Shown: positions 1-62,761, counted from the first letter of the stretch. The stretch is DNA of 64,000 nt from Amoebophrya sp. A120 (GCA_905178155.1 CAJINV010000012.1:2763765-2827764), one strand, 5' to 3'. Numbers and translations: made by a program. Notes: generated by a model from the letters alone, not told the origin.

Positions 1-3000
1 AATGGTGTTGGCATAATTGGTACTACCAGTTGTGTTAGCCTCGTCAAGAAAGACCGATGAAAACGCCGAGTCAAAGTCGAACTTGTCCGGATCCTTGCCG
101 AAGCTGACGGGCAGGGATTTCGAGGCGCGCAGGGGTGGTTCGAAGTAGTGCGGGTCTTGCTGCTGCGGGGACAAAATGTTTTTGCTAGTTGATGTAGTTG
201 TACCAGAAGTTCTTGTTGCACCGATATTATTGTTCATAAGTCCGCTCGGCTTACTTGGCAGCGAATTGGACGCCGCGGAGCCCCCGCCTTGCAGGTTCTT
301 ATTTCTGGCGCCGCCTGCCATGGGAGACGTTTCATCATCCGCAGCGGGGGACGCTTGTGCATTTACGCCGCCTATCCTGTCGTGGTTCTGGCCTTGCGGT
401 GGATCTACTTCGCTGGGAGCTCCGCCGGCTGCATTTCTATCTCCGGCGTTTTTCCCAGGGGGTGCCGAGAGCGTGTGGGCCATTACTACTTGTCCTGTCT
501 CTTGTTCTGTAGTACCTGTGGCGCTTGTCGCGGTCTTTGCTCCTGCAGCTCCATCTGCGCTACTAGCAGTGACTGCGCCTCCCAAAGACGGTGCTGCCAC
601 GGGAACAACGGAAGAAGAGCTGGACGCAGGCGCAGTGCCGACTTGGAGAACAGTTGTGATGTCATTTGCTTGTTGACTTCCTAAAGAGGATGGCTCTGGT
701 TGTACTCCCGGAAGAGGTGCAGCTTCAGTGCCCGCATTATCATCCCCCAAAGCGGTATCCACAGCATCAAACTTCGCACCAACTCCTTCCTGCATTGTAC
801 CGTCAGTGCTGTTGCCAACAGTCGACGTAACTCCGCCTTCGTTGCTGGCTATTTGATTCTGCCCCTGTGGCTGATGCTGTAGTGCCAGCAACTCCGAGGA
901 CGTCAAATCTTCATCGTAAATATCGTCCCCGATCGACGCCTCCTCCGCCGCAGCGGCAAGAACCACCTTCATCGCAGCCGTTTGCGCTGTCGCTGCTGCT
1001 GATGTAGTTGGGCCACTCGTAGTACTCGCCGCCGCCGCGGACGATGTTGGCTTGATATTACTAGTTCCCGCTTGGGCCCCGAGCGGGTTCATCTTCGTCG
1101 CAGCAGCAGTACCAGCTCCTCCCACGACTTCGTCGGAGGTCAATTGTAGTAGTTCCGTGGAAGATTCGTGGCTCATCGCACCGGGGGCTCCTCCGAAGGA
1201 AGAAGTAAATCCAGGATTTAGTATCTCCAGCTCCGTATCGGAAACGTAATCTACCTCGTCCGCCTCGGGAGTGTCATCCCGCTGGTAGACCTTCGCTACC
1301 CATTCCGGCAACGAGATTTTTTGCAAGAGCTTTTCCATGGTATCCGAACTGAAGTCGTCAAACAGCGTCTGCATCTCCTGGTAGACCAGGTCCCGCCCGC
1401 TGATGTGCTGTTTCTATGACAGTGCATAACCCCCCCTCCCCCTCATTTGTGTTGCATGAACAGCAACACAAGCGCTGGCAAAGATGCAGCTTTTGCATGC
1501 CAAATTCCTAGGGGATTGTAGTGCTGTTGCGGATTCCGGAACCTGTCTTGCAAACAGTACTAACAGGCAAAGGGTGGATTTGAAATTTTGCATGACAAAT
1601 GAGGGGGAGGGGGAGTTGTGCACTTTCATAGTTTCGTCTCCTCGTCGTCAAGCTCTTCATCTAAGTCGCCAAACTCGCAAATGAGCAGAAAAGGAGCGCG
1701 GGTTTTCGTGGAAAAAACTCGGCAATCGTGGGCATGGACCTATTTTGATACTGATTTTTTCTCCGTCATGTTGGTGGCTGTGGCTCCTTCGCTCTTCAGA
1801 TTAAGAACATCAACAGAGCGGCCCTACCTTTTTTTATTCGAAGAACCTCTCAAGGAGAAGAACAAGTAGGACCTTAGGCTTAGCCATACCACGAATACGA
1901 TGGTGGATAGAAGTACTTAAATGCATTATCTTACCTTCAACAGCTGCAACCTAGTGTCCCAGCCGTGCAAAGGAACGTGCAGTCCGATCATTTGAAACTC
2001 CGATAGCGCCGTCGCGGCGAAGTATGAAAGTGCACAACTCCCGCCCCTCACCCTCATTTGTATTGCATAAGCGGCAATACAGGCATCAGCAAGAGTGCCG
2101 GTTTTGCATGACAAATTTCTAATGGATTGTAGTGCTATTTGGGCTACCAGAACTTGTCATGCAAACAGTGCCAACACACAGAGGTTGGATTCGGTATTTT
2201 GCATGACAAATGAGGGGGACGAGGGGGAGTTGTGCACTGTCATACGAAGCACCTGCGCTCCAGAAGCCACACGTTCAGGAGATTTAGCGGCTTTTGGATC
2301 GCCAAGTCGCGGTCTTCGCACCGGGTATAACGGGAACACAGGGAAGGGATGGAAATTCCAATTTGGCGCTTTTGTCAACTACAACATACGCAAAAACTAA
2401 AACACATTCATAATGCCTGCAATGAGCATGCTGTTCCTCTTCCTGTTGCTGGCGGGCATGACAAATCAGCAAAAAGAAAAATCCATCACCAGTCATTTTC
2501 TCCACGATACCGAATCACGTAGTCAGATAGGGAGAGCAGGAAAGTCGAAAAAGCCAATTGCGTGTTCCAGTAGTTTACCTTTTTTTGTTGGTAGACATGT
2601 AGTGACGAGCGGTTTCCTAGTATGCTTGTTGTATTAACTTTTGATCGTCAAAAATCACAGTTTCATTTTCCATGGTTTTTACCCACACTAATATGAAGAA
2701 GTGGGGTGCTGCTATCCTCAGACAAGACCCTTGATCAAATTTTCAAGTACCGTGAGAATCTTGGGTTGCTCTTCAATCCTGGGTATGCTATCCGACAGTT
2801 GGTCGCCAGCGTACACATTTGGCGCCGCTTCGTCCAGCTCTAAAAACCCGCCTCGCGCGTCGCGCTTCAAGGAACGGAGGTAGGTGAGGATAGAAGTACC
2901 AGCAGCAGGAGCTCCTGGTGCTGCGTTAAGGTTGTCAGAAAGGGTTTCGGAGGAAGTCTTTCGAATCGAGGTGGCGCTGGAGGAGGGTGGTATCGGTTGG

Positions 3001-4074
3001 AAAAACTTATAGCTGATGCGCCGTTGCCACCTTCCATGCGCATTCGTGATGTTGCATACGTACCTAAAGGCATACTTACAGTATGAGCACTATGATCTAC
3101 CCCCGTCGTCCGGTCCCTCATCTAGATCTAGTACAAGTAGTACTTCTAGGTACTTACAAACATCAACATGCTGATCATGATACAAAATCGACTTGCGCCC
3201 GGACACAGCAATGGGAATGGCAGGCACTGGCACAACAACAATTTTGCGTGAAATAGCAGTCGGTCCCTTCTTGAACGTGTCCAAGTGAGCATTCACGACG
3301 GCGCGCTCCACCTAGTAGTAGAGTTTGTCTTATTTGTCGTGCTAATTCTACATTCCATTTGGGTTTGTCATGCTAATTCTACATTCCACATTCATGCTAA
3401 TCCTACAAACCTGATCGATAAGGGTGTCTCCGGCGATTTTCAGAGCTTTGGTCTGTTCCCGCTCCTCGAAGACCGAGATGTATGCAATACAAAAGTATCG
3501 CACTAGCGGCAATCGCAACACCAATTTACCTGTGTAGCGAGGACTTTGTCATGCTAGACACGGTAATAGAAAGTATTTTTGTCATGCTAATGTACGAGCG
3601 CAATACTTTTGCAGAGGATAAGATGGCCAGCCAGTGGATTTTCAACGCGAAATGCACGGACGATTTCGCTTTCCACACGAGAAACTTGGAGAGCGACTGC
3701 GCAGATTTGGTGGTCTCCTTCGCGGACAGCCTCGTGATGCAGATCTGCACGAGTTGACAGAGGTAGAAATCCACCTCGACGTCGGATTTCTCGTACAGTT
3801 GGTTGACCAAGTAGTCCTGGATCCCCGGCCGCTCGTCGTGGTACAGGTAGTGCATCAGGTAGAAGATTTCGCTTTTGAAGTAGTCTGACTGGAAGAACCG
3901 CAGCAGCGAGTCGATGTTTTTGGAGCCAGGCCGGTTTTGGCTGGTCGTGCTGCTCAGCGCCTCCGACTCGTTGTAAAAGGTCATCATCTTGTTTGCAGCG
4001 GAGAAAGAACTGCTCCCGGCCGCCGCCGCCGCCGAGGAGGACATGGGGGCCGTGCTTCCGGAGGATACCATCAT
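1..4074 (-). CDS. PI4KB: Phosphatidylinositol 4-kinase III beta-like, multi-exon, 5' part only (catalytic domain lies beyond position 1)
   Basis: N-terminal helical segment LLRFFQSDYF..LMHYLY..GIQDYLVNQLY..VDFYLCQLVQ..HFALKIHWL; spliced continuation VERAVVN and LLK|VHAHDCRVFSTKTRAPFLLICE resembles PI4KIIIb. Exons between ~2300 and 3150 are not fully resolved. Confidence 0.85.
1415..1630. mobile_element. Introner, family A (TIR TATGAAAGTGCACAACTCCCCCTCCCCCTCATTTGT)
   Basis: TSD GTTTC; removal gives ETK|QHIS. Confidence 0.9.
1740..1934 (-). other. Canonical GT-AG intron (PI4K)
   Basis: AAG|GTAAG ... AATAG|GTC joins LLK|VHAHD. Confidence 0.8.
2023..2244. mobile_element. Introner, family A
   Basis: TSD CGAAG; removal gives RCF|AATA. 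Confidence 0.9.
3312..3410 (-). other. Canonical GT-AG intron (PI4K)
   Basis: CAG|GTTTG ... CTAG|GTG joins LIDQ|VERAVVN. Confidence 0.8.
3481..3620. mobile_element. Introner, family B (TIR TATnnnnTGCAAAAGTATCGYACT)
   Basis: TSD AGATG; removal gives WLAI|SVFE. Confidence 0.88.
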
Positions 4075-6139
4075 CGAGAAGCAGGAAACCAGCGGCCCTG
4101 CGCGAGTTCTGCCGCAGCTGAGAACCCCCGCAAAGCACTCGGAGAGACAATCGCAAATTTTGGCGTCGCCGGGGCTTTCATGGATACGGGGGGCGAAACA
4201 GAGAATAAAGTGCGGGGAAGGTCATTTGGTTTATTAAAGCGATTCTACTTCTTCTCTGTGTTTCCTTCAGAACCCAACTCAACTCAGTTTCGCAGGTAAA
4301 ACTGCGGTCGGACTCGCAGCACGCGGGCCGGAAGATCACAGTATAGTCATGACTTGCGTACTACACTTTAACTTTATTTATTCATTCTGATGTGGTATGT
4401 CCTAGAGTTGGCGTTGTCGCTGCAATCTTTACTACAAGCATCTGAGCCCCTTCTTTCCAGATAAGGAGCAGCGAGCAGTATTTTTCTTGTGGCTGTGCGC
4501 AAGCAAGTGGACTTATTAGATCATTGACTTGCAAGCGCACAAAGTGAAGTGGCGCCGCCTTATTTCTTTTTCTTTGCCCGTACTCAATTGGGACGGGGAA
4601 CAACGCACAACCATCAAAATCGGGCGACCCGCAGTCCGTCGCAGCGGCAGCCGCAGGGAGAAGCATTAAGGTGCAGCGAGCTCCAGTTTGCGAAGGCCCA
4701 TGCCCGCCAAACTACTGACAGAGAGAAAAAACGGCGCCGCCGCCGCATGCTCTGCTCGGTCCACACATCGCTCCGCCCCGCCGACCAGCGGGGGCAGAAG
4801 TCCAATCAATCTGGGGCCGCAACGCACGGGCCGAGCATATTTATGCGGGTCGGCACTCCATCCGAGAAAAGGGCTGCGCGCACGCCTCTAAGGAAGTAAC
4901 ACGGCACTCGCGCGCCCTGTTCAGCGTGCCCGGAAATATAGATGACACAGACATAGACCGACGGACGCGCGCGAACCAAGGCGCGGGAGCAATGCGGGCC
5001 CACCACAAGCCCGGCCAACCAGGCCCGCGCACACCGGCTGGCCGGGGGGGGCCCAACCTGCCAAGCAAGCAAACCATCGGGCGGCCGGCAAGAATCAATG
5101 AAAACACAAGGGGGCGGCGCCCTCTGCCTGCCGGCCCACGAGGGGCGCGCCCGCTTTGCGCGGGAAAATGACGCGCCGCCGCCGGCTGCGTGCGCCCACA
5201 GACAACACTCCCGCCCGCGCACACAAACAAAGGCGGCCGACGCCAGACGGGGGGGGGGGAACCAAGGGCCCGGGGCATTCCAAGCCTTCTGCGTTGCCTT
5301 TGCAAGCCCCGCATTGAGTTTGCGGGGGGGGCCGCGGCGCGGCGGAGCTTGCCGCTGCTTTGTACAGCGTCGAGGGCCCGCGAAGGCCACTCTCGCACCG
5401 CTCGCCGGCCCGGCGGGCAGCCCCGGCCGGCGCGGGGCCCGCCGCCGGGGCGCGCCGATAGAAACAAAGCGGGCGGGCAAAGGGAACGAAGGAAAGCGGG
5501 GGGGCGCCGCCCCCTGCCTTCGTTCACCCTCCGGCGCGGTTGCGATGGATGGAAGCCGCTGGCGTCGGCCGGTCCCCCGTCACCTGCGTGCCTTGGCGAG
5601 TGGTGGCCCGGGCCCCCCGTTTCCTTCCTAAGGCCCGCCGGCGCGAAGGCCCCCGGCGGATACGCAAGACGGGCCCGCCGGGCGGGCCCCACCTCCTCGA
5701 CCCCCCCAAAGCGCCCCAAGGGGCGCCCATCCGCAGGGGGCCGCAACGTTCCAACTGCAGCCCCGCCCCCGGCGGCGAACGCTCACCCCGACAAATATCA
5801 GGCGCGGCAATTCTACCAAAGAGCGCCCCGCACTTGTGCGCCGTATCTGTGTGGCCGCCCCGCGTCTCCAGTTGCTCAGCGTTAGTGGTCAACCAGCTTC
5901 CTCATACACACAAACAGCAGCCGAAACAGCCTCGCCAGATTTGGAACACAAGTGGAACAGCGCTCCGGTCGCAAGATGAAACGACGCACTTTGTTACCTT
6001 GGCAAAGGTTTTTTTTTTGCGCAGAGCACGCTTGGAACTGGAACAGGAAACTGTTCGTAAAATTCATTTCTATTTTCGTCATGATCATTTTATTTCTGTC
6101 TCACAAGGACATAAAGCTTGTGCAACTACCAAACATGGA

Positions 6140-9123
6140 TCAGACAGCAGGTTTTGGTAGCCACTGCAATGCGCGACTCATTGTGTATCTCGACGGTTGA
6201 AACAATACCGAAGGCCACACTTTGCAGCGAAAATCTAGATTTTCATAGTCACAATTATCACCTCCTTGCTCAACCTCCATCCGGCCATCGCTCCTCGTCC
6301 CCTGCATTTCCTCCTCCGTTGTAGTGCCACTTCTATCGTACAGTTTCATTTTCCGCTGCATTCTAAAATCCTTCGTACCACGGCCTCCCCCAGCTGCACC
6401 TCCGCCCCGGCCAGCTCTCCTACCCCTACGCCCCCCGCCGAAGCAGCTCAGTGGCGGGCTCGCGTTTTTGTCCACGTGGAGGTAGTCCCCCATGACGGAG
6501 CGGACGTTCTCCAGCGCGGCGTCAAATTCCAGCAAGGGGTCCTCCGAATCCATGAAATCCGTGTAGTGGTGCACGTGGGCGCGCCGCTTGTACAGGCGCT
6601 CAAACTTCCGCACAATCGACTGCAGCAGCCCGGGGACGATGCCGCAGTTGTTGGCCAGTCCGAGGCAACTGTGCTTGTACGCCGAGGCGGTGGTGGTGAA
6701 CGCCGCCGCCCCCCCGGACGCCGCCGCGCTACTCGCATTGTAGTGCGTCGAGTTCGTGGTCGGCACGTTGCTGCAGAGTCCGATCTTGATCGCGTCTTCG
6801 TTAAAAGGGAGGAACTTCAGCTTTTGCTTCACTCTCGTCACGTTCCTGGTCACGTCCTGAATGCCGCAGTCCGAGCTGCGGACGAGAAACGCCTGTGCAA
6901 GCGTGACGTGGCTCTTCGGGTTCACGTACTGAAAAGCACCAGGGTCCACGACCCCTCCACTCGCGAAAGAACAACCTCCGACTACATGATCCGCTGATGG
7001 TACGAACCCTAGACTGCTGTTGTGGTGCTCCACCACCGTGTTTTGGCTGTTGTAATTCCAGCAGAGGCATCAAATGTAAAAATGTGTGGGTCTGGAAGAA
7101 TGCAAGTTTGTCATGCTTGTCTGGCACGACTCGAGAATCTGTGGCGCATAGGCACGAAAAGGCCCTCTTACCTGTCATGCAAAAACGCAGTTTGCCATGC
7201 GGAATACGTAAGACATGGGAGCCAAAAGATTTGTCATGCATAGCTGCGTATTGCAGTGCGTCTCCCATTCGCTTTTAGCATTACAAGTTTCCAGACCCAG
7301 ACATTTTTGCAATCCATAAGAGGGAATGGTCCGCCGTCAGCGCCACGTCCGCGAACATTTGGTCGACGGCATCGAATCCAAATGTGTCTGGGTCTGGAAG
7401 AGTTGAACTTGTATTGCTGTCTGCGGACTCTAAAAATATCTGTGTTGCACGAGCAGCAAGAGGAGTGAGCTCTTGGCACGCGGAGAGGGCATTTCTCATT
7501 GCGTAATTAGCATCAAGATCAAGAAGCTCTCAAAAAATATGTGATGGTAGCACCAGCATCACAGATCTCACGGTTCATGCAAAATGTGCATGACAAGCCC
7601 CCACGCTTTCATACCCAGACATATTTGCAGTTGATAGAAGGAGCGAGGCAGCAACTTCCGGTCCTTGGAGACTGTCAGAGGGGATAAAGAGGAATTCAAA
7701 AAGTGCATTTTCGGGTAGGGGACGAGGTTCGTCGTGATTTCGTTCAAATCCAGGTTTAACGATCCGCTGTACCGCATCGAGGCCGTCAAGTGGTTCAGCA
7801 TCTGCGCAACCAAGAGGTTCATGTCCCCGAAGGGGGGGCCAGAGGGCTTCGTAGTTTGAGGAGCAACAGATCCAGTTCCTTGATGTGGTCCTCGACCAAG
7901 AACTGTCTGGTCGAAGTCACTGACCGGCGTTCTTGTACTTAGCACAGAAGATGAACCTGGTGCGGTTCTAGCGGTAAGAACCGCGTTGGAACAAAACGCT
8001 GAGTTGCCAGAGGCGGAAAGCAAAGTCGCCGCGGTGTTCGAAGATGCGGCGGAAGATTGTTCAACAGATGTTGATGATGATCCAGCTCCAGTCTTGCTCT
8101 TACACGCGGAGTTGATTCGGTCGACGAGATGGATCAAACTGTCGTTATTCACGGGTAACACGCAGTGCGCGTTGTCGATCATTTTGTTCAGTGCCAGCAG
8201 ATATCAACTGTAAAAATGTCTGGGTCTCGAAGAATTCATGTTTGTCATGCCTGTCTGGCATGACTCTTAAATCTGTCACGCACGTTACCCAAGAGCTCCG
8301 CTTTTCTGTGATGCAGAAGCGCAGTTTGTCATGCAGAATAGGCAACACCTAAGAGCTCATGAACTTGTCATGCTGAGCCAGCATCTGTAGCCTCATCATG
8401 AGACGCCACCCAGCATCACAAGTTTTCAGACCCAGACATTTTTACTTTTGATAGCAGACTGTTGTACGGACTCGTGATCACGTCATCCGTTTGCAGCGAG
8501 GGCGTAACGCAGGACACGAATCGGTAGTACTCGGGGTAGTTATCCGCCAGAATGTTCTCCAGGGTGTACGTCCCGACCCCGGATCCCGTGCCGCCACCGA
8601 CGGATTGGAGTAAGAGAAAGCACTGCAGGCTGTCGCACTTCTCCACCGCGTTCCGCACCGCCTTTTCGATCTTGTTGTGATACATTTGCTTCCCATAGTG
8701 ATAATACCCGTGGGCCCAGTTGTTTCCACTGCCGGAGACGTCGGTGACAATCTGCTTGCGGTCGAAAATGTCGCCGAGGGGGCCTTTCAGAAGCGAATTC
8801 ACCACACCGTCCTCCATGTCGACGAGGACCGCTCGCGCCTTCAGCGTTTTGATCTCAGTCGTGACTTTCGGGTCGATGTCCCGGTCGTTCCGTCGGTCGA
8901 TGTTGCGGAAGAAAGAGGACAGGGCGTCGTCAAAGTGGTACTGTGGGTGGGAGGGGTTACTTGGTCCGGCGGGGGTGTGCTTGTTGGTTAGCGAGCTTGA
9001 TGGCCCGTGTTGCTGCTGTTGAAATATGTGGTCCAGGTGTTCCTGCAGCGCCAGGTCCCAAAACCGGCACCCGATTTGGTTGCCGCATTGGCCAACCTGA
9101 ACGGTTATCACTTCGCGGGGCAT
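6140..9123 (-). CDS. TUBE1: Epsilon-tubulin, 4 exons separated by 3 introners
   Basis: MPREVITVQVGQCGNQIGCRFWDLALQEH, SGSGNNWAHGY, GGGTGSG, LNLDLNEITTNLVPYPKMHF, LYKRRAHVHHY; frame restored at all 3 junctions (SPYNSL|LALNKM, PRS|DQMF, DHSL|CWNY). Confidence 0.95.
7068..7318. mobile_element. Introner, family C (TIR TATCAAATGCAAAAATGTCTGGGTCTGG)
   Basis: TSD AGAGG; left end CAT variant. Confidence 0.9.
7370..7636. mobile_element. Introner, family C
   Basis: TSD GACGG/GAAGG; left end CAT variant. Confidence 0.88.
8202..8453. mobile_element. Introner, family C
   Basis: TSD GCAGA. Confidence 0.92.
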
Positions 9124-11170
9124 GGTGTCGGGGGTTGTTGGAAAATGGTTTTTGAAACTCGCTTTGATAAACAGCCTAATCTTTTAGAAGTACTTGATGA
9201 AGTGAGCGGATTGCTTACGAGGCAACCATTGCAAAGCCAAGTCACAAGCGAAAGCTTTCGATCGTAGAACAGCTTGCCTTCTTCAAAAGATTCTACGGAC
9301 GGAAAAAATCACAGGCATTAACCCTCAGTCGCCAGCTGAGCCAGCTTGGGAGAAGATTTTTCTGGGGCGGACAAAATTGCCGACGAACATAGTAAAGCGT
9401 CCCAACAAATAAGCACCAAGAAAGGAACTAACGCTGCACACTGCGGCGTGAGACCCTCTCCATTAGGGCGGCACTGCCCCCCGGCGGCAGCGCGCGGGAA
9501 CGGCACACCACCGGAGGCTGCCGATACGCCCAACAAACTGCGCAGGCAGGGGCGACAAAAAGGCGCACGCACCCGGTTCCTGGGCGGAGGGGGGGGGGCG
9601 GGGCGGGGCGGATCGGCGAAGGGCACCATAGTAGCCCTCCCTTGCGCGGGGCCGGCAGGCTGGCAAAACACGCGGCTGCCCCCTCCGCCGAAGGGGACAA
9701 GCGCCACACCCCAAAAGCCTAGCCCTTCCGCCCGCCGTGGCGCGGGCGCAGGCGGGGCAGCGGCAGAACGAAAGGGGGCGCGCGGACCAACCAAGCCACC
9801 ACGCGGCCAGACGGCCGCGCCCCCCCGCCCTGGCAAGCTGGCAAAACAAACCGACACGGCCGGGCCCCCATTGGTGCTGTTAGTTGATTCGTCGCTTCGC
9901 GGCCGGGCGCCTTCACCGACCCCCTCCGCCCCGCGGGCTCGCTCTTTCACGACGCGCAGTTCTTCCGCTGGCGCACCCAACCCCACCCAAAGCCACCCCG
10001 CCCGACGCGCGGGCGCGCCCCAAAAAGGGGCGGGCACGCGCAAGCAACCAAGGCACAGGCCTCAGGCCAAACCAAAACGCCCGCAGGGCGGCCGGGCGGC
10101 GCTGATACCTTCCGAGCGCCCCCCCCCCCGGGTTCACCAAGAACCCGCCCGCCCGCGGCCCACGGCACGCCCGCCCACCTTGGTGGCGAGCAGTTTTTCC
10201 CCGATCTTCATGGCCTCGCCGATCAGGCGGCACAACTACGTCAAGGATGCGGGCCACCGACACCGGGCGGGGCGGCGGCTCTATACTTTGCGCGCCAGAA
10301 TCGTGCACACCTTCGCGCCACGCACATTCTGCTTGCGAAGGCGGTCACCCAAGGAAGCCAAATCGGGGCGCGCCCGGCGTTTTATCACCCAAGCCGATAC
10401 CCGCTGCAACCTCCTTCCGTGCCCATCCAAACGCGGGCCGCCGGCAGGTGCGTGGGCGCGCGCCCAACGCCGCTGCGCCGCCTTGCCCGCGCTGCGTAGC
10501 TACTCGCGGAATCGGTGGCCCGCCGGGGCACAGGAGTACGGCGGGCGGCAAGCGGGGTGGCGGCGCCGCCTTTGCGGCGAAAAACTGGCCACCCGATCCC
10601 GGGCCGGCCGTTCCCGTACCACCTGGCGCCCTCAATCTGCGGCAAGATCGTTGCCCGAACGATGGCAGGGGCGACCTCGGAGCGACGTCCCCGCTCCTGC
10701 TGCAGGGTCCACAGCCCCAACGAAGCGGCCCCCGGGGGCCCGAGTTCGTGGAGCCCGAACCCCGCGCGATGTCAAGGCAGCCACTGCCGCCACTGCTATT
10801 TTCGTTATGGTCCGTCCACGATAATGTCGCGCAATTTTTGTACGATCGGCCACAACAGGTTCGTCACTGCGCGATCATTCGGATCCACTTGAATTTGTAC
10901 CACACAGGGAACATCACTTAGACTCAGTCAAATGATATTACGACGGAACTCCTCCGGAAGTGAAAACTTCGCGTCCACATGCCACTGCGGCCACATGCTT
11001 GCTCAAAGAGGTACAGGTAGGTTCGGGTGCAAAATCAAACCAAAGAGCACCAAGACGAAGACCAATTTCATTTCATTCACTTTCAATTCTTGGCACAGCC
11101 AAAGTGGCCGGCGATGTCAAAGAACTCATCAGCACGCTCGCAAGCGTCGCACCCACAGAATCAATTGTCT

Positions 11171-14613: not shown

Positions 14614-15697
14614 TCACTTCGAGCGGAAGCACGCCTTCCACCAGGAGTCCGCCTTGGAGAACAAACAGGAGCAGCGCCTGGGCGGAGCATCTGCTTGCTC
14701 CGTGTTCATTTCCGCGTCATTGTTCTCGCTTGCGCTAGCAGCTCCTGGCTCATCAGAAGCCGCTCCGTTTGCATTTCCCGCGGAGGTGGTGGATTTCTTG
14801 CCCTTATCCCCCTCCAGTATCTCGAGTGCGAAGCTCGCCAATGCGTCCGCGGTTTCGTCTGCATCATACCCCGCGGCACTGCTTGTCTGCCGCGCCATGA
14901 TCGGCAGGGAGCTGACGCGGCGCACGGACAACGGATCTATTTCCCCTACTTCTGCTGAAGAAGCTCCATGGTGCAGCGTTGCCGACCGGCCGACGGGTAA
15001 TTGCGGCTCCTCGTCGCTCAAGTCGATGTCAATTTCGGAAAGCCCGCCGTCATTCAACTCGCCGGGGGGTGATCGGGTTTCCGAATTTTTAATGATATGC
15101 TGGCCCACTACATTTTCCAAACCGACCGCTCCGCATAAGGCACCCGGGACGAGTATTTTTGCGTCCACATGATCTTGCTGGCCTCTGCAGTTGCTCCCAC
15201 GACTCGTGGTTGTGTCGACGGCGAACAAGGCGGGAAACGGGGTATGTTCGAAAGTGGACGGGGAGGAGGACTGGGAGAGGGCGTTTAATCTTTCCGGATC
15301 CGGAACTATCAGGTTCTTTTTCTCCAGGTTCTCGTACGGCTGCTGCAATGGTGGGGTAGTTATGGATTGCAAAAGTATCGCACTCGTATAACTATAAATA
15401 CAAATTTCCTCAGCATGAGAAATAAAATTTGTAATGCTGATTTAGATTAAGGAGAAGATTTGTAATGCATGACTGCAATACGAGTACGATACTTTTGCAC
15501 AGGATAGTAGTAGTTTGCTGTGGACCAGCAGAAGTGGTATCAGCATCAGTCCCCTGTTGTACTGCTTTTATTTTCGTGCTGACCTGCAGTTTCCTGTTGA
15601 ACTGATACGCAGAGGCGACTGCTGGAAACAATATGGTGCTGGAGGCAAGAAGAGCAACGGCGCGCATGGAAGCAGGACGCCGCGGGCTCGTCTTCAT
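14614..15697 (-). CDS. Hypothetical secreted protein, 2 exons
   Basis: Signal-peptide-like MRAVALLASSTILFPAVASA; frame restored across introner 15361-15506 (QTTT|PPLQ). Confidence 0.7.
15361..15506. mobile_element. Introner, family B
   Basis: TSD GTAGT. Confidence 0.9.
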
Positions 15698-16022
15698 TTT
15701 GATGTTCTTAGTGGCCGGATGACTCCTGCTCGGATTTTGAAACCTCAATCCTCGGGCCTAGAATTCCACAACTGATGTGACTAACTTGCAAGTGACTACT
15801 TCTATTTGCGATTGCGATTCGGATCTTTCATATTTAGCATGATTTGCTGTTGCTTGTAGTTCTGAATATCACGTGATCTATTTATTTTCAGTGCTTCACG
15901 GATCATGATCAGCTGGAAGTAGAATGAGAATCACGTGTGGCACAACAGGAGTAGGTAATCACAGTGTGTTCTCTGAGGCATCATCGCTGGAACAGACACT
16001 GCGCACGCAGGTGAATCTGGTG

Positions 16023-50000: not shown

Positions 50001-53000
50001 GCACACGTCACCGTCGCGTTCAAGGAGTACGGCCCGGCCAGCGCCCAGGTCCCCATCCGGACGAATTCCGCGCGCTCCACGTTTTTCACCTTCCAGCACA
50101 GCCCGTACACCGCCGGGGTCCCCTCGATCACGTTGCCCAGAGAGTACACCAGCGTGCCCTGGCCGTGCACGCCGCCAATCGCCTGCGACGCGTGGATGTC
50201 GGACACATTGCTGACCGCAGTCGCGAGTAGGCCGGTCGCGACCTGGTCACAGCTCTCCACGCCGGCGGGCAAAATCCGGATCACCCCGTCCACTTGTCCT
50301 ACCCCGAAGCCCATGCCCTGACCGACGAGGTGTAAACTGCAGTCCCGTCCGAGCACGCATTTGGTCACCGCGAACTCCGGGCCTTGCACCACCGCCCGGC
50401 CGACATTGACCAGGGCTGTGGCGTCGTAGAAGGACACAACTGAGTTGTTGCCGACGAAATTTGGGGATAAAGGATAAGGATCCAAATATCGGGACCACCA
50501 TATCCTGTGTGAAAACGTCCTTACCCCGTACTTGTCAGTTGTCATGCAAACCTGTAAGAGTAAAATGTTTCTCGTGCGCAGTCCCATTAGAAGCATTTTC
50601 TATTGCAAACTGGGAGTTTATTGTCATGCTAGATTCAGGATGAGGTGGCCGATTTCTGATGCAGCTGCACTACCTAAACAGGACTACACTGCGCATTCCA
50701 ACTTGTCATGCGCAACAGCCAAAACTCATGGCTTTGTGTAGCGAAGTTCCCATCTTGACTCGGCGGTGGGGACGTTTTTACGCCGGATACACCAGCACAT
50801 TTGGTACTTCCCCGGCATTCGCTGTAGGAAAAACTCCTCCCCCGGCTCAATCGGCGCCGGGATGGAGGGAACCAGCTGCGGCTTTTTCTTGACGTCACAG
50901 GTCGCGTAGGTAACGTAAGTTATGAAATGCAAAAGCATCGCACTCGTATAAATGCATTACAAATTTTCTCAGCATGAGAAATAAAATTTGTCATGCGGAT
51001 GCACCTTAGGAAAAACATTTGTAATGCATGACTGCAATTACTACGAGTACGATACTTTTGCACAGGATATATGTCTGGATGGACCAACTGAAGGGCGACA
51101 TGCACGGCGCCTCTTATGGAATGCAAATATCCCTGGATGTCTGGAAACTTCTGATGCAAGGAAGGGAATAGCGAGCATACTTTAATGCGCTGCCAAGCAT
51201 GACATAGTTTTTTCGTGGTTCTGAATTGCGTACGCCGCATGAGAAACTGCGTTTTTGAATCACAAACAAGAGGAGCTCTTTGCGGCCACGCAACACAGAG
51301 GCCAGAGTCATGCTAGACTAGCATGACAAACCTCGCAATCTCCCAGACATCCAGGGATATTTGCAATGCATACCCCTAAGATGCACACCATTTCCTTCGG
51401 ATCCGGCCCGAGCGCCAGCGGTGCGATGTAACCGCCTCGGACCTGCGACCGGAGAACCACGAACGTCGGAGTGGGGATGGAGTCCTCGAAGCTGGTAATG
51501 GAGAAAGGGATCAAAGGTGAGTTCTTTCCCTTGGAAATTTGAAAAACAATCAAGCCGTACCTCGTTGTGATCAGCACCGTGTCATTTTTGTACCCGGCCG
51601 TCCCGTGGATCTGGGACACGCCGGAGGCGATTTTCAGAATGCCTGTGCCACTTCCTGTGGTCGCAGCTCCGCTACCGGAGCTGCTTTCATCTCCACTCAC
51701 CTGTTGACTACATACCTGGATGTCCGTGGAATTTGGCCCGGAACTCGAATTCACTAAATCGTCGCTGTAAATCGTTTGATTCGTGCAGTTTACATCGTCA
51801 TCCGAAACGGTGACGAGCTGCCGCAGAAGTAAAACCGACGTGGTATTTGTTCCTGTTCCGCTACTGCTCGTCCCGCTGGTTGAAGATGAGCTACTGGTAC
51901 TTTGTAAGGACACCGTAGTCTCAGACGCCGGCGTAGCCGCGGACGTGTCGGCGACGTCGGTTCCGTTGCCGAGCAAGGCGTAGATGTCTTGGTTCACGGT
52001 CAAAGGGAGGAGGTACTTGTTCAAACTGGACACCGGCTGCATGCCGTGCTCGGACACGGAGAAGCGCGAAATCGTCTCGTTAAAATCGATATCTTGGATG
52101 ATCTCCGCGTTCCAGCGATAGAGCGTCAAAACCGTGTTATCCGGCACGGTAATCGGGATCTTCACGTTCGGATCTTTCATGGCCGGTTCGCCAATCAGGA
52201 TCAAATCATCAAACACATACGATAACTTCGCGGTGCTCGCGGTGATATTGAAATACGGCAGGTCCTATCCTGTGTAGGAACGTCCCCACCCCAGAGTTCT
52301 TGTCATGCAGATTTGCCATGAAAGGAACATTTGTAATGCGCACCCCAACGGGAGGCATTTCCAATCCTGTTTTCGAATTTGTAAAATGCTGCAAAAAGCA
52401 TAAGGAGATGGGTTGTGATGTGGATGTGCTTGCTAAGCCGCATTTTGCAATACAGAGACGAACTTGTCATGCGTGACTCCCAAACCTTCTGGATTTGTGT
52501 TGCGAGATCCCCATCTTGACTCTGGAGCCGTAGGGACGTTTTTACACGGCATAAATCCCGTGTGATGGTCACGAGATTGGACGTGGTGCCCGTCGGGTCT
52601 AACACCGTTCGCGCGATTCGGACGCCGTCATTCCAAGGAAAAATCTCTCCTCCCCATATTTGAAGCGTATCCTGCTGAAAATTTGCGATGCAGTTTGGGG
52701 CCCACAGTTCCTGTCTGTCTTGGAAGAGGGCAAACGCAGAGAGTCCGCCGCGTTATGCAGGCGCTTTGTAATGCTGGAGGGCCTACAGGGGCGACGTCTG
52801 CCATGCTAGCCGCCTACACAACAAGGCCCCTGCCTAGGCTTACGATCTGCGTGCAGTCCTATACGGCAGGACAGACTTGATTTGTGTACACAAATCCCGC
52901 ACCACAGATTTCCGCTTTTGTATGGGGAGGAGGGGTTTTCCTTTCGATACCCGGACTTCACCTGCGACTTCGGCTCCGCGGAGGTCGAAATAATCGCGTA

Positions 53001-56000
53001 CGCGTAATCCTTATCAAATGCAAATACGTCTGGGTCGGGAAGAGTGTGTGATTTGTCATGCATCTCGCGGACCACACGCATGGTCTGGCATGCACACAAA
53101 AGCATCGCAAATTATGCGCGGGCTTCCTCATGCCTATTCCGGATGAGAAACTAGCCTTTTGCCTAGCAAGAATTAGGCAGCTTTTGGCGTTCATGCAACA
53201 CAGATTTCTCTGTGCTCGAAACGCAGCATAAGAAGTTCCACCCTTAGAGACCCAGACTTATTTGCATTTGATAATCCTTGTCTGCGAAGCCGGGCCGGGG
53301 GTTGACCGCGGTGATGTACCGCCCCCCCTCAATGGCGTTCTCAAATGTTACATTCTCAACTGTTACATGGAGATGGATTTGTCATGCAAAATGACCATGA
53401 GCCACCAGACAATGAAGCTGCTTCGCATGACAAATTCCCGGAGGGCTAAATAGCACTAGAATCTGCACCAAATCTGTAATGCAAGACGCGCAAGGTTCTC
53501 CCTTCCACCTGTGCTATTCCTGCATTACAAATTCATGTAACAGTTGAGAATGTAACGTTTGAGAGTCCCATACCCTCAATGCTGAACCTCGGGTCCCCCC
53601 GGGCGGCCCGGCTTATCAAATGTAAAAATGTCTGGGTCTGGAAGAACGGAACTTGTAATGCTGTCTGCGGATTCTAAAAATATCTGTGTTGCATGAGCAG
53701 CAAGAGGAGTCAGCTCTTGGCGCGCGGAGAGGGCATTTCTCATGCGTAATTAGCATCAAGAAGCTCTCAAAAAATCTGTGATGCTAGCACCAGCATCACA
53801 GGCCTCACGGGTCATGCAAAATGTGCATGAAAAGTCCCGACTCTGACATTTTTGCATTTGCTACGGCTGTTCCAACAACAAAAGGAGTTTGCGCCCGGAT
53901 TGTAGGTGGCGTAGAGAATTTTCGACGCACCCGGGCCGGAGTCGACCGTCCACTCAACCAACAAAGTCGTGGAAGACACGAACACCTCATCGGTTGGCAC
54001 GGAACTGAACCGCTCGAAGGAGCCGAGCCCGATGCCAAGCCCGTCCTTGTCGGGGGAATTCAGGTAGGAAATGTCCAGGTACAGATCCGCCACGTGCACG
54101 GAATGCTCTCGGAGAAGTTGCTGCTGCTGGGCAGTGGTCAGATCCGGTGTGGGCGTAGAACTAGAAGTAGCTGCAGCAGAAGTGGTTAAGCTTGTCGCAT
54201 TTGATGTAGAAGTTGTTCCACTGTCGCTACTTACACTGGTCCCCGTCATGAAGCTTTTCGCAGCCCAGCAGAGTCTGTAGTGCTGGAACGCGAAGTCTTT
54301 GACAAACAAATCCGTCCGACTGCCCGGGACCCCAAGGTCAAAGCGGTTGAAGGGAGACTGATCGACCGGGTTGCGCTGATACACAACGGGGTTCGTGTTG
54401 GGCGTGGTTTCCGGATTGTACTATGCACTGCAACAGTATCGCACTAGTATAAACCAGCCATGCTCCGGCTGCCGCCGGAGCGCAAGGCTGTTGGGCCGGG
54501 GCAAGACTGTTTGCCGATCGGACCACAACCCCACGGGCCTATGCACAACGAAACACACTGCTTTCGTGCCGCCCGTTTGCGCCGCGCCAACCCGCTGGAC
54601 CACTTGCGCGCTTCCCGCGCCTGCGGGCGCTCTGCGCAGGGAGCAGCTGCAAAGAACACCGGGGGCGAACAGAAGCCGCCCGGCGGGAGAGGGTAGCGCG
54701 AGAGGGTGGCGCGAGAGGGTAGCGCGAGAGGGTGGCGCGAAAGGGTGGCGCGAGAGGGTGGCGCGAGAGGGTGGCGCGAGAGGGTGCGCGAGAGGTTGGC
54801 GGGGACAGGCGCCGAACAAAACAAGTCCGCGAATGGCCTGCAATGCCAAATATGGGCAGTACCATGCGGATTCGCGCCCGCCACTTTGTGTTTTTACCCT
54901 CTCGCAGACCTCTCGCAGACCCTCTCTTTTACCTCTTTTGGGGGTCCCCGCTAATAATCCGGCTATACTCGCGGGCAGAGGTCGACAGAGGTGGCCGAGA
55001 GGTGGCCAAGAGGGTCCGCGAGAGGTCGCCCCTTATTCGCGCCACCTCTCTCGACCNNNNNNNNNNNNNNNNNNNNNNNNNNNNNNNNNNNNNNNNNNNN
55101 NNNGGCTATACTCGCGCACCCTCTCGCCGACCCTCTCGAAAGGGGTCCCGCGCCACCTCTCCACCTCTGTCGACCTCTTTTTTACCTCTTTTGACCTCTT
55201 TTTGACCTCTCGGCCACCTCTTGTTTACCCTCTGTCTACCTCTTTTTTCGCATGAATATAATATATAGTAATTGCATATACAAATTTTCCCAAGAACAAA
55301 AATAAAATTTGTCATTCTATTTCAGGTAGAAAGTTGGATTTGTCATGCATATCTGCAATTAGTACGAGTGCGATACTTTTGCACAGGATATGTACCAGTT
55401 TTTCGCCATAATCACCGCATTCGCGTCTCCACAGCTGTGCGCGTCGTCGATGATCAGTAAAGAGTTTTCGCTGCTCAGCCCGTAGTAGTGCAAAATTTCG
55501 AAGAAGCACGGCAACCCGATTTTGCAATTCACAATCGGCGCCGGCGTGGACGCGAAGGGCCCCTGCATCGCAAGTACCCCGAGTGTGGTCGAGTACTCTG
55601 CTAAATCAGTAAGAGTAGTTGCACCACTATAATCGGCACTAGCCGAACTCATCTCTTCCGTCCCACTAGCCCAGCACAGCGGGAAGCTCCCTCCGATATG
55701 CCCCTTTTCCGCGATGCCGAGTTTGTAAAAGGTCGTGTTGTATCAAATGCAAATATGTCTGGGTCTGGAACGAAGCGGACAAGTTTGTCATGCACATTTT
55801 CCATGATTTGTGATGTCTGTGATGCATGCCTTAGCATCACAGTTTTTTTGAGCGCTTACCGATGCGCATCCCGCATGACAAATGCCCTGCTCTCCGCGTA
55901 GCCAAATTTGACTCCCCTTGCTGCTCAGGCAATACAGATTTTTTCAGTATCCAAATGCAGCATCAGAAGTTTGGCTCTTTCAGACCCAGATATATTTGCT

Positions 56001-59000
56001 ATGCATATGTTCAAATCCGTTTGGTTCTCAAAAGCGAATTCCTCCAAGGCGAGCTGGGCTGCGGTTTATCAAATGTAAAAATGTCTGGGTCTGGAAACTT
56101 GTGATGCTGTGTGGCATTTATGAGGAGGCCACAATTGCTGGCGCAGCATGACAAGTTTCTGAGCTTCTAGGTGTTGCCTATTCTGCATGACAAACTACGT
56201 TTCTGCATGACAGAAAAGTGGGGCTCTTTGGTAATGTGCATGACAGATTTAAGAGTCATGCCAGACAAGCATGACAAACTTGCATCCTCCAGACCCAGAC
56301 ATTTTTACATTTGATACGGTTAGAGGAACAGAAATTCCTGTTTGGTTGGACAGAAATAAATCGTCGTCCTCACTCGACGCCAAGGCCGCCACCGGTCGCA
56401 GCGGGTAGGCGTTGATATTTGCGCCCGGCCAGATGATGAGGTGCGAAGCATTCACGTCGGCCGCCCCGCAGGTTTGTCCGTCTTGCAGGATGATAATTTT
56501 GTTCAAAGACGAGAGCTTTTCCCCGGTCACCGTAAATTGGCAGTTTTCCGTGAGCGTGCAGGTGACATTCACCATGCTCGGCCCTCCGAGGTACTCTTCT
56601 ACTACAGAGGGGAAAAAAACATCGTCGATCTTCTGCGTGAACACCGGCAACTTCGTCTCCGTCGTTCTTTGATCCACTACACTGTTTGATGCCGTCGAGG
56701 ATACGAGGAAAGAAGAAGTTGTTGTTCCAGCAGCGAGTTTCACGATCCCAAAAAAGGCGAAAAAGGTCGCGTTGGAGCTTGTGCTGTTCAACACCGTCTG
56801 GATGCTGGTGTGGTTCGCGATTTGTATCGACACGCTTTCTATCAAATGCAAATATGTCTGGGTCTGGAAAGTTGTGATGCATGTCAGTGAATAGAAAGCG
56901 CACTGTAATGCACTGCCAAGCATGGCAGACTTGTTTTCCGTGGCTCCGTATTGCGTATTCCGCATGACAAACAGCGTTTTTGCATGACAGACTAGAGGGC
57001 CTCTTGCTGGCTACGCAATACAGAGCTCAGTGTAATGCCAGAATAGCATGACAGATCTCGCATTCTTCCAGACCCAGACATATTTGCAATCCATACTTTC
57101 GTCAAATAAATTTTTCACCCCGGTTGCTACGCCGATCTGCAGTCTGCTTGCCGTGCAATTCTCGAGATTCGTTGCCCCTCTCTCGTAGTCAGTAGCGCAG
57201 GCTTCCGTGATCGCGTACAGGTTGAATTCCAAGGCGGAAACTTCCGGCTCTACCGCTGGGTTGATGATTTTAAGACTCACAACATCAGAAGTAGACGACA
57301 CTGCATAATCATCATTATTATCGTCGAACGCGAAGTCAACTGTTCCGGCGATTTCTCCGTAACCTGTGTCGGTGTCGAGAAAAGTGAAATTCTTCACCTC
57401 ACCCAGAAGTTTTCGATCCGCTAGGTCAACTCCTGTGTCGACAATCTGCTCCGTTGCATCAGTTTGGTTCGTCGTTAGTACCCAGACGCGAAACATGTTC
57501 GAAGTTGTACTTCTAGAGGCTCCCGAAGCAGGAGGAGGAGTTCCCGGTACAACGACTGTGTTTTCTGGAATGGCGAAAGAAAACAGTTCTAAATCCGTGG
57601 TTCCATTCACCGACTGGGTCACCATTCCCGTGCTCTCATTGTTCGAGATGTTCTTCACGAAGTACGGATCACCCACGTCGCTGGCAGTACTGTTCGCCGG
57701 GAGGAAATAGAAACTGTAGGTCAATGAACTGCCCGCCGTCGTGGTGCCTGTCGTTTCCAACACTGCAGTTTGAAAGGTGAAATTCCCCCCTACTTCGCCG
57801 TTATCGGGGTCAAAGTCGGTGAAACTGATCGTGGTGGGATCGACCTGGCCAGGGTCCAAGGGTGATGTTGATGTTGTACTACTGGATTGCTGCAACTCTC
57901 TTCTATTTTTGCCGGCCGCCGCGGCTGTGTCATCATCTGTTCCCCCACCGCTGGGAACATGCCGTCCATCGACGCTTTCCGCTCTCCTCGTTGCTCCTGC
58001 GTAGAGACCTTCTCCGCCAGCTGCGTTCTTTTTTCCATCTGTAGTTCTTGCAGAAGAAGTAGTTCCTTTGCTACTTTTACCATCACCTCTGGCATTTGCT
58101 GCTCTACCTCTTTTCGCTGATGACGAACCTGCATTGATGTTATTCTTGCCTTCTGCTCTCGAATTTTTCTCCGTAGTTTTCCCAGCGAGAGTGCCGGTAG
58201 AGGATGCACTAGAAGTTTCCGCACTCTTCGCGACCCTCCGCTTCTCGGCAGCAGATAGTGATGTTTCCGCTGTAGTTCTTGCACCATCACCAGCGGTGGT
58301 AGTACTGTCCTCTTGTGAAGAAGTTGTACTTCTAGTGATTTTTCCACCTCCCGTCCGCCCCTTTCTAGCAACATCTTCAGTCGCCGGGATGATCGCGGCG
58401 GGCTGCTGCATGTTTTCCTCTCGACCATTCTTTTCCTCCTGCTGCTCATCGATGGTGTTCTTGTTGTCCAACCCCCCTGTTGCTGCAGCCCGGCTGTCTG
58501 AAGATGTGGGTTTATCTTTATTTTTTGTAGTTCTAGTTTCTGGCTTTCCTGCGTCAACACCTCCCGTATTACTGCGCGGCCGGGAGGCGGAGGGCAGTCT
58601 CTCTTCGAGGTCCATCTCGATGCCATTCTTTCGGCGAGTATGATCTGCATTTGGTGGCCCACTTGTTGTAGCTTCTCGACCTCGTCGTCGCTCCTCTTCC
58701 GGCTTTTTCGGAGAATCGTTCTTGTAGAACTCTTCGTCAACGCCGTTCTTTCCTCGGGGGCTCGCTTTGTTTTTACTTTTGGAAGAAACAGATTTCGTTG
58801 CTTGTTCGCCGTTCTTCTTGCTAGAAGATGAAGGTTTTTGGGTTGATGCTGCTCTTGTGCCTTCTTGTCCTTCAATAGCTTCCGCTTCAACCGAATCCGC
58901 TGCAGGTTTGTTGTTCCTTCCGGTCGTGCCTCCCGCCGGCGCACCTTTAACTTTTTCTTCCGCGAAAACAAAATCGTCGCCCTGCTTCGCGCTAGCTTTT

Positions 59001-59404: not shown

Positions 59405-59415
59405 TCTCTGTTCTC

Positions 59416-59703
59416 TGTCCTGAGTAAAAACGTCCCCACAGCACCAGAGTTGTCATGCAAATGCGCAAAGCCAGGAACGTTTGTAATGCGCAGCCCCATG
59501 AGAGAAATTTCTAGTCGCGTTTTGGAATTTGTAAAAATGCTGTAAACAGGATGTGAGAATGACTTTCTCATGCAGCTTATCTTGCCAATCAGCACTACAC
59601 TGCAAAGGGAAAGAACTTGTCATGCACAGCTCCCAAAACTTGGAGGTTTGTGTTGCTAGATTCCCATCTTGACTATGGGGTGGGGACGTTTTTGCTTAGG
59701 ATA
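59416..59703. mobile_element. Introner, family D
   Basis: TSD TTCTC; left end TGT variant preceded by a 7-bp duplication. Confidence 0.85.
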
Positions 59704-59805
59704 TTCTCTTCCATCCGCATCGCAGACTTAGCCCTTTTCCTGCGCCCTCACCAGTAGCAGCACCGGTAGCGGCTGCAAGCTCGTTCCATATTTCCGAACA
59801 AACTG

Positions 59806-59955
59806 TATCCTGTGCAAAAGTATCGTACTCGTAGTAATCGCAGTCATGCATTACAAATCTTCATCCCAAGGTAAAACAGCATGACAAATGCCATTCGTCA
59901 TGCTGAGCTAATTTGTCATGCGATTTATACTAGTAAGATACTTTTGCAGTTCATA
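59806..59955. mobile_element. Introner, family B
   Basis: TSD AACTG/AACTC. Confidence 0.88.
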
Positions 59956-61460: not shown

Positions 61461-62761
61461 TCACGCCGCGCACGCGCCGTCGTCCCAGGTGCATTTGCCG
61501 TCCGTTTTTTTTTCGCATTCATGGTCATCATCCATGAAGTTCGAAGAAATCGCGGCGGCGCAAGCGTGGCACTGTTCCCCACCTTCCTCGTCCTTCACCA
61601 CCCACTCATTTAGCCCATTGAGTGTGTACCAATGGCCAAAGAAACAGTTCAGACTCTCTGCGTAAGCGGCGCACCTGTCCTCGTCCGCCGGAATCTCGTC
61701 GCAAGACGTTGGAACAATCTCCCCTCTCCTGAGTAAAAACGTCCCCACTAATGCGAATCTGCATGCTGAAAATGTTTTTTATGAGGAGCCCCATGAGATG
61801 CTTTTTCTAGTCGTGTTCCGTAATTTGTGATGCTCCCATCAGAATAATATTGTAGATCTGTGATGCAGCTGAACTCGCCAAACAGGTCTAGTACACTACG
61901 AGGCCTCACTTGTCATCATGAGCAACAGCCAAACCTTGTTAAATTTGTGTTGCAAAATCCCCATGTTGACTCTGGGGTGGAGACGTTTTTTCTCAGCAAA
62001 TCCCCGCAGCTGCCGCCATCTTTGATCTCGCAGTACAAATCTGCCTCGTGTCCTTTGCACCAGGCTTATGAATTGCAAAAATGTCTGGGTCTGGAAGATT
62101 GCAACTTGTCATGGTAAATCTGAAGCATGCAAAAATCTGTGTTGCATGAGTCCCGAAAGCTGTTCACTTTTGACCAATTTGGGCCGGAGTTTCTGTCACT
62201 TTTGACCAATAGGCATGGCAGAGACCTCGCAGAGTCTGTCGTGCTAAGTCCCGCATTCCATACCTCATGGGTCATGGAAAATCTGCATGACAAGTCTACA
62301 CTCTTCCAGACCCAGACATTTTTACAATTCATAAGGCTTGGTCACTCCCAATTTCCTCGCAAGCCGTCGGCTTCGCCACGCAGGCACTGTCCCCCGGCGT
62401 CTTGACTTCGCAGTTCAGTTCGCCTTCGGATCATGTGTCATGATGCGCGGTTGTACTTCTGTAACGGTCTTTCTGATTGTTCTAACGCCCTTTATAGTAA
62501 GTAAGCCCGACTACACGACATTCTTTTTTATCTTGGAACAAGGAAATAAATTTTGTTTCTTTACGGTTGTAACTACACTCTCTAAATGTAGTTGCGCACC
62601 TGCTGCGTCGCTAGCCACGGAAGAACTCCGATCATAGCGCCGGTACTAGTGAACAGCAGGTTCGTGTTGCGCGCCTGCTTGTTCTTGCTGCGGTTCGTCC
62701 CCGCGGCGTCGGCCTTGGTTCCGGGTTTTGCTTTTGCACCGTCGTCTTTCGTGTTGTTCAT
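61461..62761 (-). CDS. Small cysteine-rich repeat protein; 5' exon(s) uncertain
   Basis: Spliced across 2 introners: LNCEVKTPGDSACVAKPTACEEIGSDQA|WCKGHEADLYCEIKDGGSCG|EIVPTSCDEIPADEDRCAAYAESLNC..KCTWDDGACAA*. Sequence upstream of ~62425 could not be joined in frame. Confidence 0.6.
61725..62000. mobile_element. Introner, family D, both termini decayed (TCT..AAA)
   Basis: TSD TCCCC; frame restored (SCG|EIVP). Confidence 0.85.
62067..62333. mobile_element. Introner, family C
   Basis: TSD AGGCT. Confidence 0.92.

Follow-up and report, generated by a model that had tools for sequence, protein, structure and literature searches.

A motif pair spaced by three helical turns recurs in the introners of Amoebophrya sp. 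A120 and may be a transposase-binding site

Introduction

How do families of short insertions that differ in length and in their terminal inverted repeats (TIRs) come to carry the same internal motif many times over? The question is raised by a 64,000-nt stretch of the genome of Amoebophrya sp. A120 (GCA_905178155.1, CAJINV010000012.1:2763765-2827764), the whole of which we call the window, where a first-pass annotation had described TGT(C/G/A)ATGC, dense and in both orientations, inside elements of unrelated families and had attributed it to a shared binding factor, be it a transposase, a DNA-packaging protein or an intron-marking RNA-binding protein. We find that the motif is enriched in these elements and shared across their families, that it is mostly paired at 31-33 bp and conserved in the lineages that were copied, and that the elements are missing, together with one copy of their flanking duplication, from contigs that are likely to be RNA. 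Based on these observations we propose, at a probability of roughly 0.57, that the motif is where the transposase responsible for copying introners binds double-stranded DNA; the binding step, the protein and a link to the hAT transposons are what we infer.

The elements and their motif

Judged by their sequence, the elements are introners of the type already published for A120. Within the window we curated 53 short elements (140-322 bp, 12,482 bases), nearly all of which start with TAT, end with ATA and are flanked by a 5-bp target-site duplication (TSD); the mean element length is about 235 nt. A search of public contigs with the family C end provided 128 loci (388,113 bases, none overlapping the window), in which a finder requiring TAT/ATA ends, a duplication and a TIR recognized 371 elements, as against none in 113,953 shuffled bases; the same finder recovered 46 of the 53 curated elements. 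The 5-bp duplication, itself demanded by the finder, is perfect in 295 of the 371 and has one mismatch in 76. Elements of up to 350 bp, 415 in all, fall into 14 families with two or more members, and because family C alone accounts for 193 of them the families were weighted equally.

Across families only TAT and an A-run are common to the ends: TIR positions 1-3 are invariant and A occupies positions 11-15 in 70-92% under equal weighting, with families E and I deviating at positions 11-12. Complementarity between the two ends of an element is 87-96% at positions 10-14 and about 60% at positions 4-8, the latter positions changing 1.4-1.5 times faster than the interior. A few variants at positions 4-8 occur in more than one family, and this suggests end swapping or free drift. 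No target-site preference was seen in 408 insertions, the family C end had no match in viral contigs, and no Rfam family was found in the window. After masking of motifs and TIRs, which also reduces power, a BLAST match was kept in only 2 of 91 family pairs (38 when unmasked), and the description of the families as unrelated therefore stands.

The exact motif occurs 160 times in the window (84 copies on the plus and 76 on the minus strand), against 6.36 +/- 2.73 and at most 13 in 100 dinucleotide shuffles, which bears out both the density first noticed and its excess over a composition-matched background. Of these copies 148 lie within the curated elements, 51 of which hold at least one, whereas shuffled versions of the same 53 elements contain 3.4 on average and eight at most (100 shuffles). 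Five further copies are inside two interrupted elements, and the remaining 46,343 bases hold seven against 3.3 expected. The positions first quoted as examples are exact for 8326, 8365, 43359, 43390, 24350 and 30065, with 8241 being one base early.

The true site is longer and looser than that motif: a matrix over the window and public-contig elements gives approximately AAAYYTGTVWTGCD, a quasi-palindrome. We modelled it as a one-strand matrix and dropped unconstrained expectation maximization after it drifted to a merged quasi-palindrome. At 9 bits the matrix finds 2,121 sites in the 415 elements (5.1 per element) against 93 in shuffled sequence; DNA of open reading frames (ORFs) holds 45 sites in 140 kb, and the motif is thus near chance in exons, with no enrichment. 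Two generalizations needed narrowing. The occurrence in both orientations holds overall but not for family D, whose copies are nearly single-stranded in this respect, and not every element is well supplied, as the introner at 19795-20017 has a single weak site and no site lies near the ends of a nested 3.9-kb TAT element.

Spacing of the sites

Distances between sites of the same direction show a sharp peak at 31-33 bp, equal to three turns of DNA; this is the strongest feature of the arrays and was absent from the first-pass annotation. A pair at 30-33 bp is found in 332 of the 415 elements, and in 13 of the 14 families at least 40% of the members have one at 31-33 bp. With one random member drawn per family, 9.9 families show the pair against 1.6 for randomized positions, and under the randomized-position null the best 3-bp window reached nine families in 1 of 3,000 draws. 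Spacers are unrelated between families (identity 0.276 against 0.240 shuffled, 909 pairs). Secondary distances are 15-16 and 45-49 bp for facing sites, 34-35 and 48-51 bp for back-to-back sites, and 82-84 bp for sites of the same direction, the last recurring in five families. We regard the three-turn pair as firm and wider helical phasing as suggestive; a general 10.5-bp periodicity of all sites was considered and dropped.

Conservation during copying and probable decay thereafter

Column conservation averages 0.893 in the motif, 0.780 in the rest of the interior and 0.868 in the TIRs, with the motif above the interior in 19 of 19 subfamilies, so that the motif does persist while spacers diverge, as had been claimed. 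The effect is kept in a trinucleotide-matched control, and shared variants number 225 against 964 expected. In a tree test of 13 subfamilies with eight or more members each, rates relative to the interior are, for the core, 0.13 on internal branches and 0.41 on tips and, for the inner TIR, 0.28 on internal branches. Tip and internal rates of five other site classes fit a line with an intercept of 0.024 (95% 0.018-0.036), which predicts a core tip rate of 0.0311 per site against 0.0301 observed (ratio 0.74-1.21); this tip rate is 4.6 times (95% 3.2-8.7) the value expected without post-insertion decay. We read this as constraint on the motif during copying and neutral decay afterwards, although the test leaves room for weak selection common to all site classes. 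Since the motif is kept in copying lineages and decays after insertion, it is likely a site by which the mobilizing machinery grips the element, and not a splicing signal.

Removal from transcripts

In contigs that we guess to be RNA (none is on record as such, and they represent one sample), the element plus 5 nt is skipped at 9 of the 11 listed joints. Family B is skipped in both orientations (42984, 43291), and further skips are seen at 8202, 19599 and 19795; run X9, which is on record as RNA, provides 13 partial reads only and gives no evidence. Deletion of each element with one duplication yields long minus-strand frames, the longest stop-free one spanning 12,294 nt over 19 junctions, and both the likely-RNA joints and the restored frames place the removed ends outside the GT-AG class. 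One or a few very large genes with about 40 introners appear to occupy the minus strand at about 23070-59960, where introner removal restores frames of 2.9, 12.3, 3.1 and 4.2 kb with GT-AG-looking introns between them.

The features of the window follow, introners being listed without strand and with their family letter; "joint" denotes a likely-RNA joint and "pair" a motif pair. The entries at 32232-36437, 3313-3410, 19408-19573 and 20089-20251 are called from sequence.

1415-1630: introner A; TAT..ATA, 5-bp TSD, motif
2023-2244: introner A; curated
3481-3620: introner B; pair 3547/3580 (33 bp)
7068-7318: introner C in tubulin gene; missing from likely-RNA contig
7370-7636: introner C; pair 7556/7588 (32 bp)
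8202-8453: introner C; contigs skip 8196-8452, element plus one TSD
12939-13250: introner G; pair 12989/13020 (31 bp)
13303-13561: introner C; pairs 13336/13367 and 13481/13512 (31 bp)
13625-13892: introner C; curated
15361-15506: introner B; pair 15430/15461 (31 bp)
18948-19262: introner H; pair 19178/19211 (33 bp)
19599-19771: introner J; skipped in likely-RNA contig
19795-20017: introner K; single weak site, still skipped in likely-RNA contig
24308-24546: introner E; four alternating sites, no 31-33 bp pair
25477-25716: introner E; curated
25793-26001: introner F; curated
26364-26626: introner C; curated
26878-27142 (left end +/-2): introner C; pair 26937/26970 (33 bp)
28752-29069: introner C; curated
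30421-30686: introner C; curated
32232-36437: introner C split by 3.9-kb insertion; removal restores frame
32345-36284: nested 3,940-bp TAT..ATA element; 5-bp TSD, TIRs of about 135 bp, other repeats, no motif near ends
37608-37765: introner B; joint skips 163
38217-38427: introner F; joint skips 216
38877-39029: introner B; pair 38946/38977 (31 bp); joint skips 158
39090-39374: introner D; six sites, all on one strand; joint skips 290
41765-41910: introner B; degenerate sites only; joint skips 151
42243-42503: introner C; joint skips 266
42690-42909: introner A; joint skips 225
42984-43135: introner B, orientation opposite to 43291; joint skips 157
43291-43440: introner B; pair 43360/43391 (31 bp); joint skips 155
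43521-43785: introner C; curated
43839-44054: introner F; curated
45547-45698: introner B; pair 45618/45649 (31 bp)
46449-46608: introner B; curated
46833-47120: introner D, oriented as 39090; curated
47267-47543: introner C; curated
48090-48298: introner F; curated
49047-49352: introner I; curated
49685-49895: introner F; curated
50501-50789: introner D, orientation opposite to 39090; sites 82 bp apart
50921-51069: introner B; pair 50989/51020 (31 bp)
51115-51372: introner C; curated
52266-52553: introner D; pair 52301/52332 (31 bp)
52628-52949 (left end +/-2): introner H; curated
53012-53273: introner C; curated
53331-53572: introner E; curated
53614-53863: introner C; curated
54422-55390: introner B split by repetitive insertion; about 800 bp of low-complexity repeats around an assembly gap
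55741-56007: introner C; pair 55786/55818 (32 bp)
56067-56316: introner C; sites 56205/56238/56269 (33 and 31 bp)
56840-57095: introner C; pair 56873/56904 (31 bp)
59415-59703 (left end +/-2): introner D; pair 59451/59482 (31 bp)
59806-59955: introner B; pair 59848/59879 (31 bp)
61725-62003: introner D, decayed ends; pair 61826/61859 (33 bp)
62067-62333: introner C; curated
11963-12089, minus strand: GT-AG intron, likely fossil introner; one strong motif copy; skipped in likely-RNA contigs; matches a family F subfamily profile (nhmmer E=2e-6)
3313-3410, minus strand: GT-AG-looking intron; 31-bp tandem duplication holding two motif copies; no RNA joint seen
19408-19573 (ends approximate), minus strand: GT-AG-looking intron; one motif copy, TAT-type end remnant
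20089-20251, minus strand: GT-AG-looking intron; one motif copy; likely-RNA contig piece ends at 20252

What may read the motif

The shared binding factor first postulated is supported, and in light of the fixed three-turn spacing, the unrelated spacers, the constraint on copying lineages and the neutral-rate decay on tips, it is the transposase among its three candidates, acting on double-stranded DNA, that fits best. We posit that two DNA-binding domains of one multimeric transposase might hold two sites that lie three helical turns from each other, on one face of the DNA, in a manner analogous to the BED domains of hAT transposases on subterminal repeats. The catalytic part would need only the common end grammar of TAT followed by the A-run at positions 11-15, leaving the family-specific TIR sequence free to diverge, and many dissimilar families could therefore share one mobilizer. 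Once the element is inserted, the site would no longer be needed and would decay at the neutral rate, with splicing resting on the paired ends instead of the motif.

Several points weigh against binding by a copying transposase. Neither a transposase nor a motif-binding protein was found in the window and loci; no BED-domain protein was seen, the four long elements in these sequences have no recognizable transposase, and none of the 4 of 28 nested-element ORFs that were scanned matched a Pfam family. PMC7789003 reports no A120 transposase and argues against transposase-mediated mobilization. The pair is lacking in family E (0 of 16), and its length varies only moderately less than that of other intervals (67 of 538 deviate, against 150 of 816). 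A period peak of facing-pair distances at 10.5-10.6 (scan 7-16) and a clustering of the phases of 12 families (Rayleigh p about 2-4e-4) speak for the transposase, yet general helical phasing is weak: facing pairs give p=0.055 against a jitter null, same-direction distances outside 29-34 bp and back-to-back distances give p=0.25 and p=0.58, and the families are not fully independent. Furthermore, the predominance of family C reflects the search pattern, sites defined by consensus push internal-branch rates down, and assembly errors could mimic tip decay. Finally, in RNA fold predictions (102 folds) motif copies pair with each other at 0.42, with an interior z of -3.6, an outcome that inverted copies would yield as a by-product.

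Alternatively, a DNA-binding protein encoded by the host could bend or loop the 150-320 bp elements so that their ends meet, with families having converged on the site or kept it. The pair spacing and the tree test, being evidence at the DNA level, fit this equally well, a common factor makes sharing across differing TIRs easier, and the 3,940-bp element with TAT ends and a 5-bp duplication lacks the motif at its ends. However, such a protein would be expected to have sites in ordinary DNA, where we see the seven copies in 46 kb and the 45 sites in 140 kb of ORFs given above, and we know of no host protein of such motif-binding kind. We consider this explanation unlikely, the absence of any reported transposase in A120 (in the available text of PMC7789003) being a further point on its side.

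It is improbable that the motif acts in RNA to direct the unusual splicing, whether as a protein site, a branch point or a stem of inverted copies, present in both directions so as to serve either orientation. Gene strand was called for 212 of 426 junctions, and in the 206 elements entering the strand test the two forms lie on the transcript 490 and 485 times, without bias. By family, no orientation bias was seen in 10 tests except in A, where strand-called copies are co-oriented to the transcript 6:0 (p=0.03, uncorrected for the 10 tests). Family D carries nearly all its sites on one strand, yet the element occurs both ways in genes: among 20 strand-called copies, 10 present only one form on the transcript and 6 only the other, although copies in the opposite orientation rest on frame evidence, coverage of the giant gene being poor past 45 kb. 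This gives no support to the earlier suggestion that presence on both strands explains orientation independence. Likely-RNA contigs skip both 39090-39374 and 19795-20017, although neither offers a branch-point form that could be used near its 3' end; on the transcript of the former, no GCAWBACA-form site reaches 9 bits. With the strand balance, these skips leave the intron-marking protein without support. An RBFOX-type RNA site was rejected on variants that do not fit and on the strand test.

In favor of such a signal, U1 is reported missing in A120 (PMC7789003, available text), the reverse form has a UnAC core resembling a branch point, and predicted folds pair the bases of the motif more often (0.76) than the rest of the interior (0.60); family D, on the other hand, has no predicted internal fold (motif pairing 0.05, z -0.5), and tip changes in the core follow neutral decay. 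The branch-point idea came from four GT-AG-looking window introns, hand-picked for holding the motif, which have the reverse form on the transcript. From 81 GT-AG predictions that passed a first filter, many of them spurious, we kept 22 by donor, acceptor, GC and length rules under a rough gene model. Copies persist in these (13 sites against 1.3 expected), but 15 of the 22 have no site, the forms stand 10:3 in the wrong direction for a branch point, and the right form is never found 15-65 nt before the AG, so the idea was not borne out. Five of 27 introns tested match element profiles, including 11963-12089 (E=2e-6), with the motif itself adding to the scores; motif-bearing GT-AG introns are likely fossils, that is, introners turned canonical. 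GT-AG introns with leftover motif copies also occur at loci L001, L013, L021 and L026, and some of the motif-bearing introns resemble introner families in profile.

We give still less credence to the motif being a functionless relic, inherited from a single ancestor in which 31-33 bp had been duplicated internally. The end grammar shared by all families makes a common ancestor probable, in the intron at 3313-3410 the pair is literally a tandem duplication of 31 bp, and spacer identity is slightly above shuffled (0.276 against 0.240). Against this, spacers are near random, and the constraint on the core along internal branches is 4- to 8-fold, exceeds that on the inner TIR (0.13 against 0.28) and stays after trinucleotide-context matching; barring bias in the alignments or the consensus, the conservation and tree tests contradict a relic. 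That the motif serves the host genome at large in DNA packaging or as a chromatin signal is scarcely credible. Same-direction spacing of 82-84 bp in five families does resemble a single superhelical turn of wrapped DNA, but copies in exons and in intergenic DNA, away from elements and what remains of them, are about as frequent as chance predicts, and the motif is not maintained after insertion.

A DNA site that is shared and spaced offers a bait for pull-down and allows candidate enzymes to be tested for binding directly. It would also separate the copying signal (the motif) from the splicing signal (the paired ends) and provide a marker for old introners that are now GT-AG introns. More tentatively, and with real doubt, we suggest that one protein might read a TIR-independent code of TAT ends and three-turn motif pairs, about every 82-84 bp, and thereby simultaneously mobilize introner families in their hundreds to thousands. 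Were this true, motif fossils would mark which ordinary GT-AG introns began as introners, and, were the protein host-encoded, the host would be licensing the largest known burst of non-canonical intron gain.

The nested element and neighboring features

The 3,940-bp element at 32345-36284, with its TAT..ATA ends and 5-bp duplication, is nested in a family C introner. Each of its TIRs, of about 135 bp, has three AGTCAAG repeats where the motif is missing, and such differing repeats of its own are the usual anatomy of transposase-bound ends. Its interior contains tandem repeats of about 86 bp (33190-33850), long hairpins (35372-35882) and no recognized ORF, as well as a sub-element (34328-34692) that has inverted ends and, in its eight CACTACC(G) repeats, a second and different repeat code. 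At this nested insertion the host gene would need to splice 4.2 kb.

A minus-strand tubulin gene (6400-9123, Pfam PF00091), which we take to be of the epsilon type, is split by three family C introners, and a cyclophilin-like ORF, recognized by eye, lies on the minus strand at 20252-20880. The region 16020-18530 has a sequence of about 50 bp repeated at about 16025, 17120 and 18490, tandem repeats of 55/110 bp and a 101-bp inverted repeat (18150-18356), and is probably another mobile element. GC-rich intergenic blocks (62-70%) at 4700-5900, 9400-10800 and 21200-22100 are without elements or motif.

Comparison with known systems

In the available text of PMC7789003, Farhat et al. (2021) describe A120 introners with TAT, seven loose bases, an A-run and short direct repeats, about 240 nt long. 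Our elements resemble these in their TAT ends with an A-run, direct repeats, non-GT-AG removal, co-oriented genes and mean length (about 235 against 240 nt), and differ in having a uniform 5-bp duplication and transposon-type interior repeats, whereas variable 3-5 nt repeats were reported there. Lengths of about 149, 208, 214-227, 252-260, 278, 305 and 319-322 bp recur in the table of Gozashti et al. (2025; PMC12130899), within the 22 of 58 A120 rows covered here, in which most families are surveyed as TIR DNA of unknown superfamily. The introners are thus already published; of the internal motif or its spacing we found no mention in the main and supplementary text of PMC7789003 (figures excluded), the main text and 12 of 14 supplements of PMC12130899, or the available text of PMC11282704.

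Among transposons, the IS3EU/GingerRoot group has TA..TA termini in common with these elements; the available text of PMC10045372 gives its TSD as usually 6 bp and describes no comparable internal repeat, and we reject this identity because the TSD is 5 bp throughout. The hAT superfamily offers the closer parallel. Subterminal repeats are required by Hermes, Tol2, Tag1 and Ac, and the likeness, as far as the available text of PMC10368747 describes them, lies in short two-direction repeats inside the TIRs, asymmetric between ends, needed at the DNA level and with a quasi-palindromic site. The 5-bp TSD fits the hAT5 group, which makes 5-bp duplications, and not the typical 8-bp hAT (PMC12730594, available text). 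Hermes itself has an 8-bp TSD and 4-bp repeats that are irregular and element-specific (PMC10368747), whereas the present site is about 13 bp long, has a fixed partner at 31-33 bp, fills the whole element and is common to families with different TIRs.

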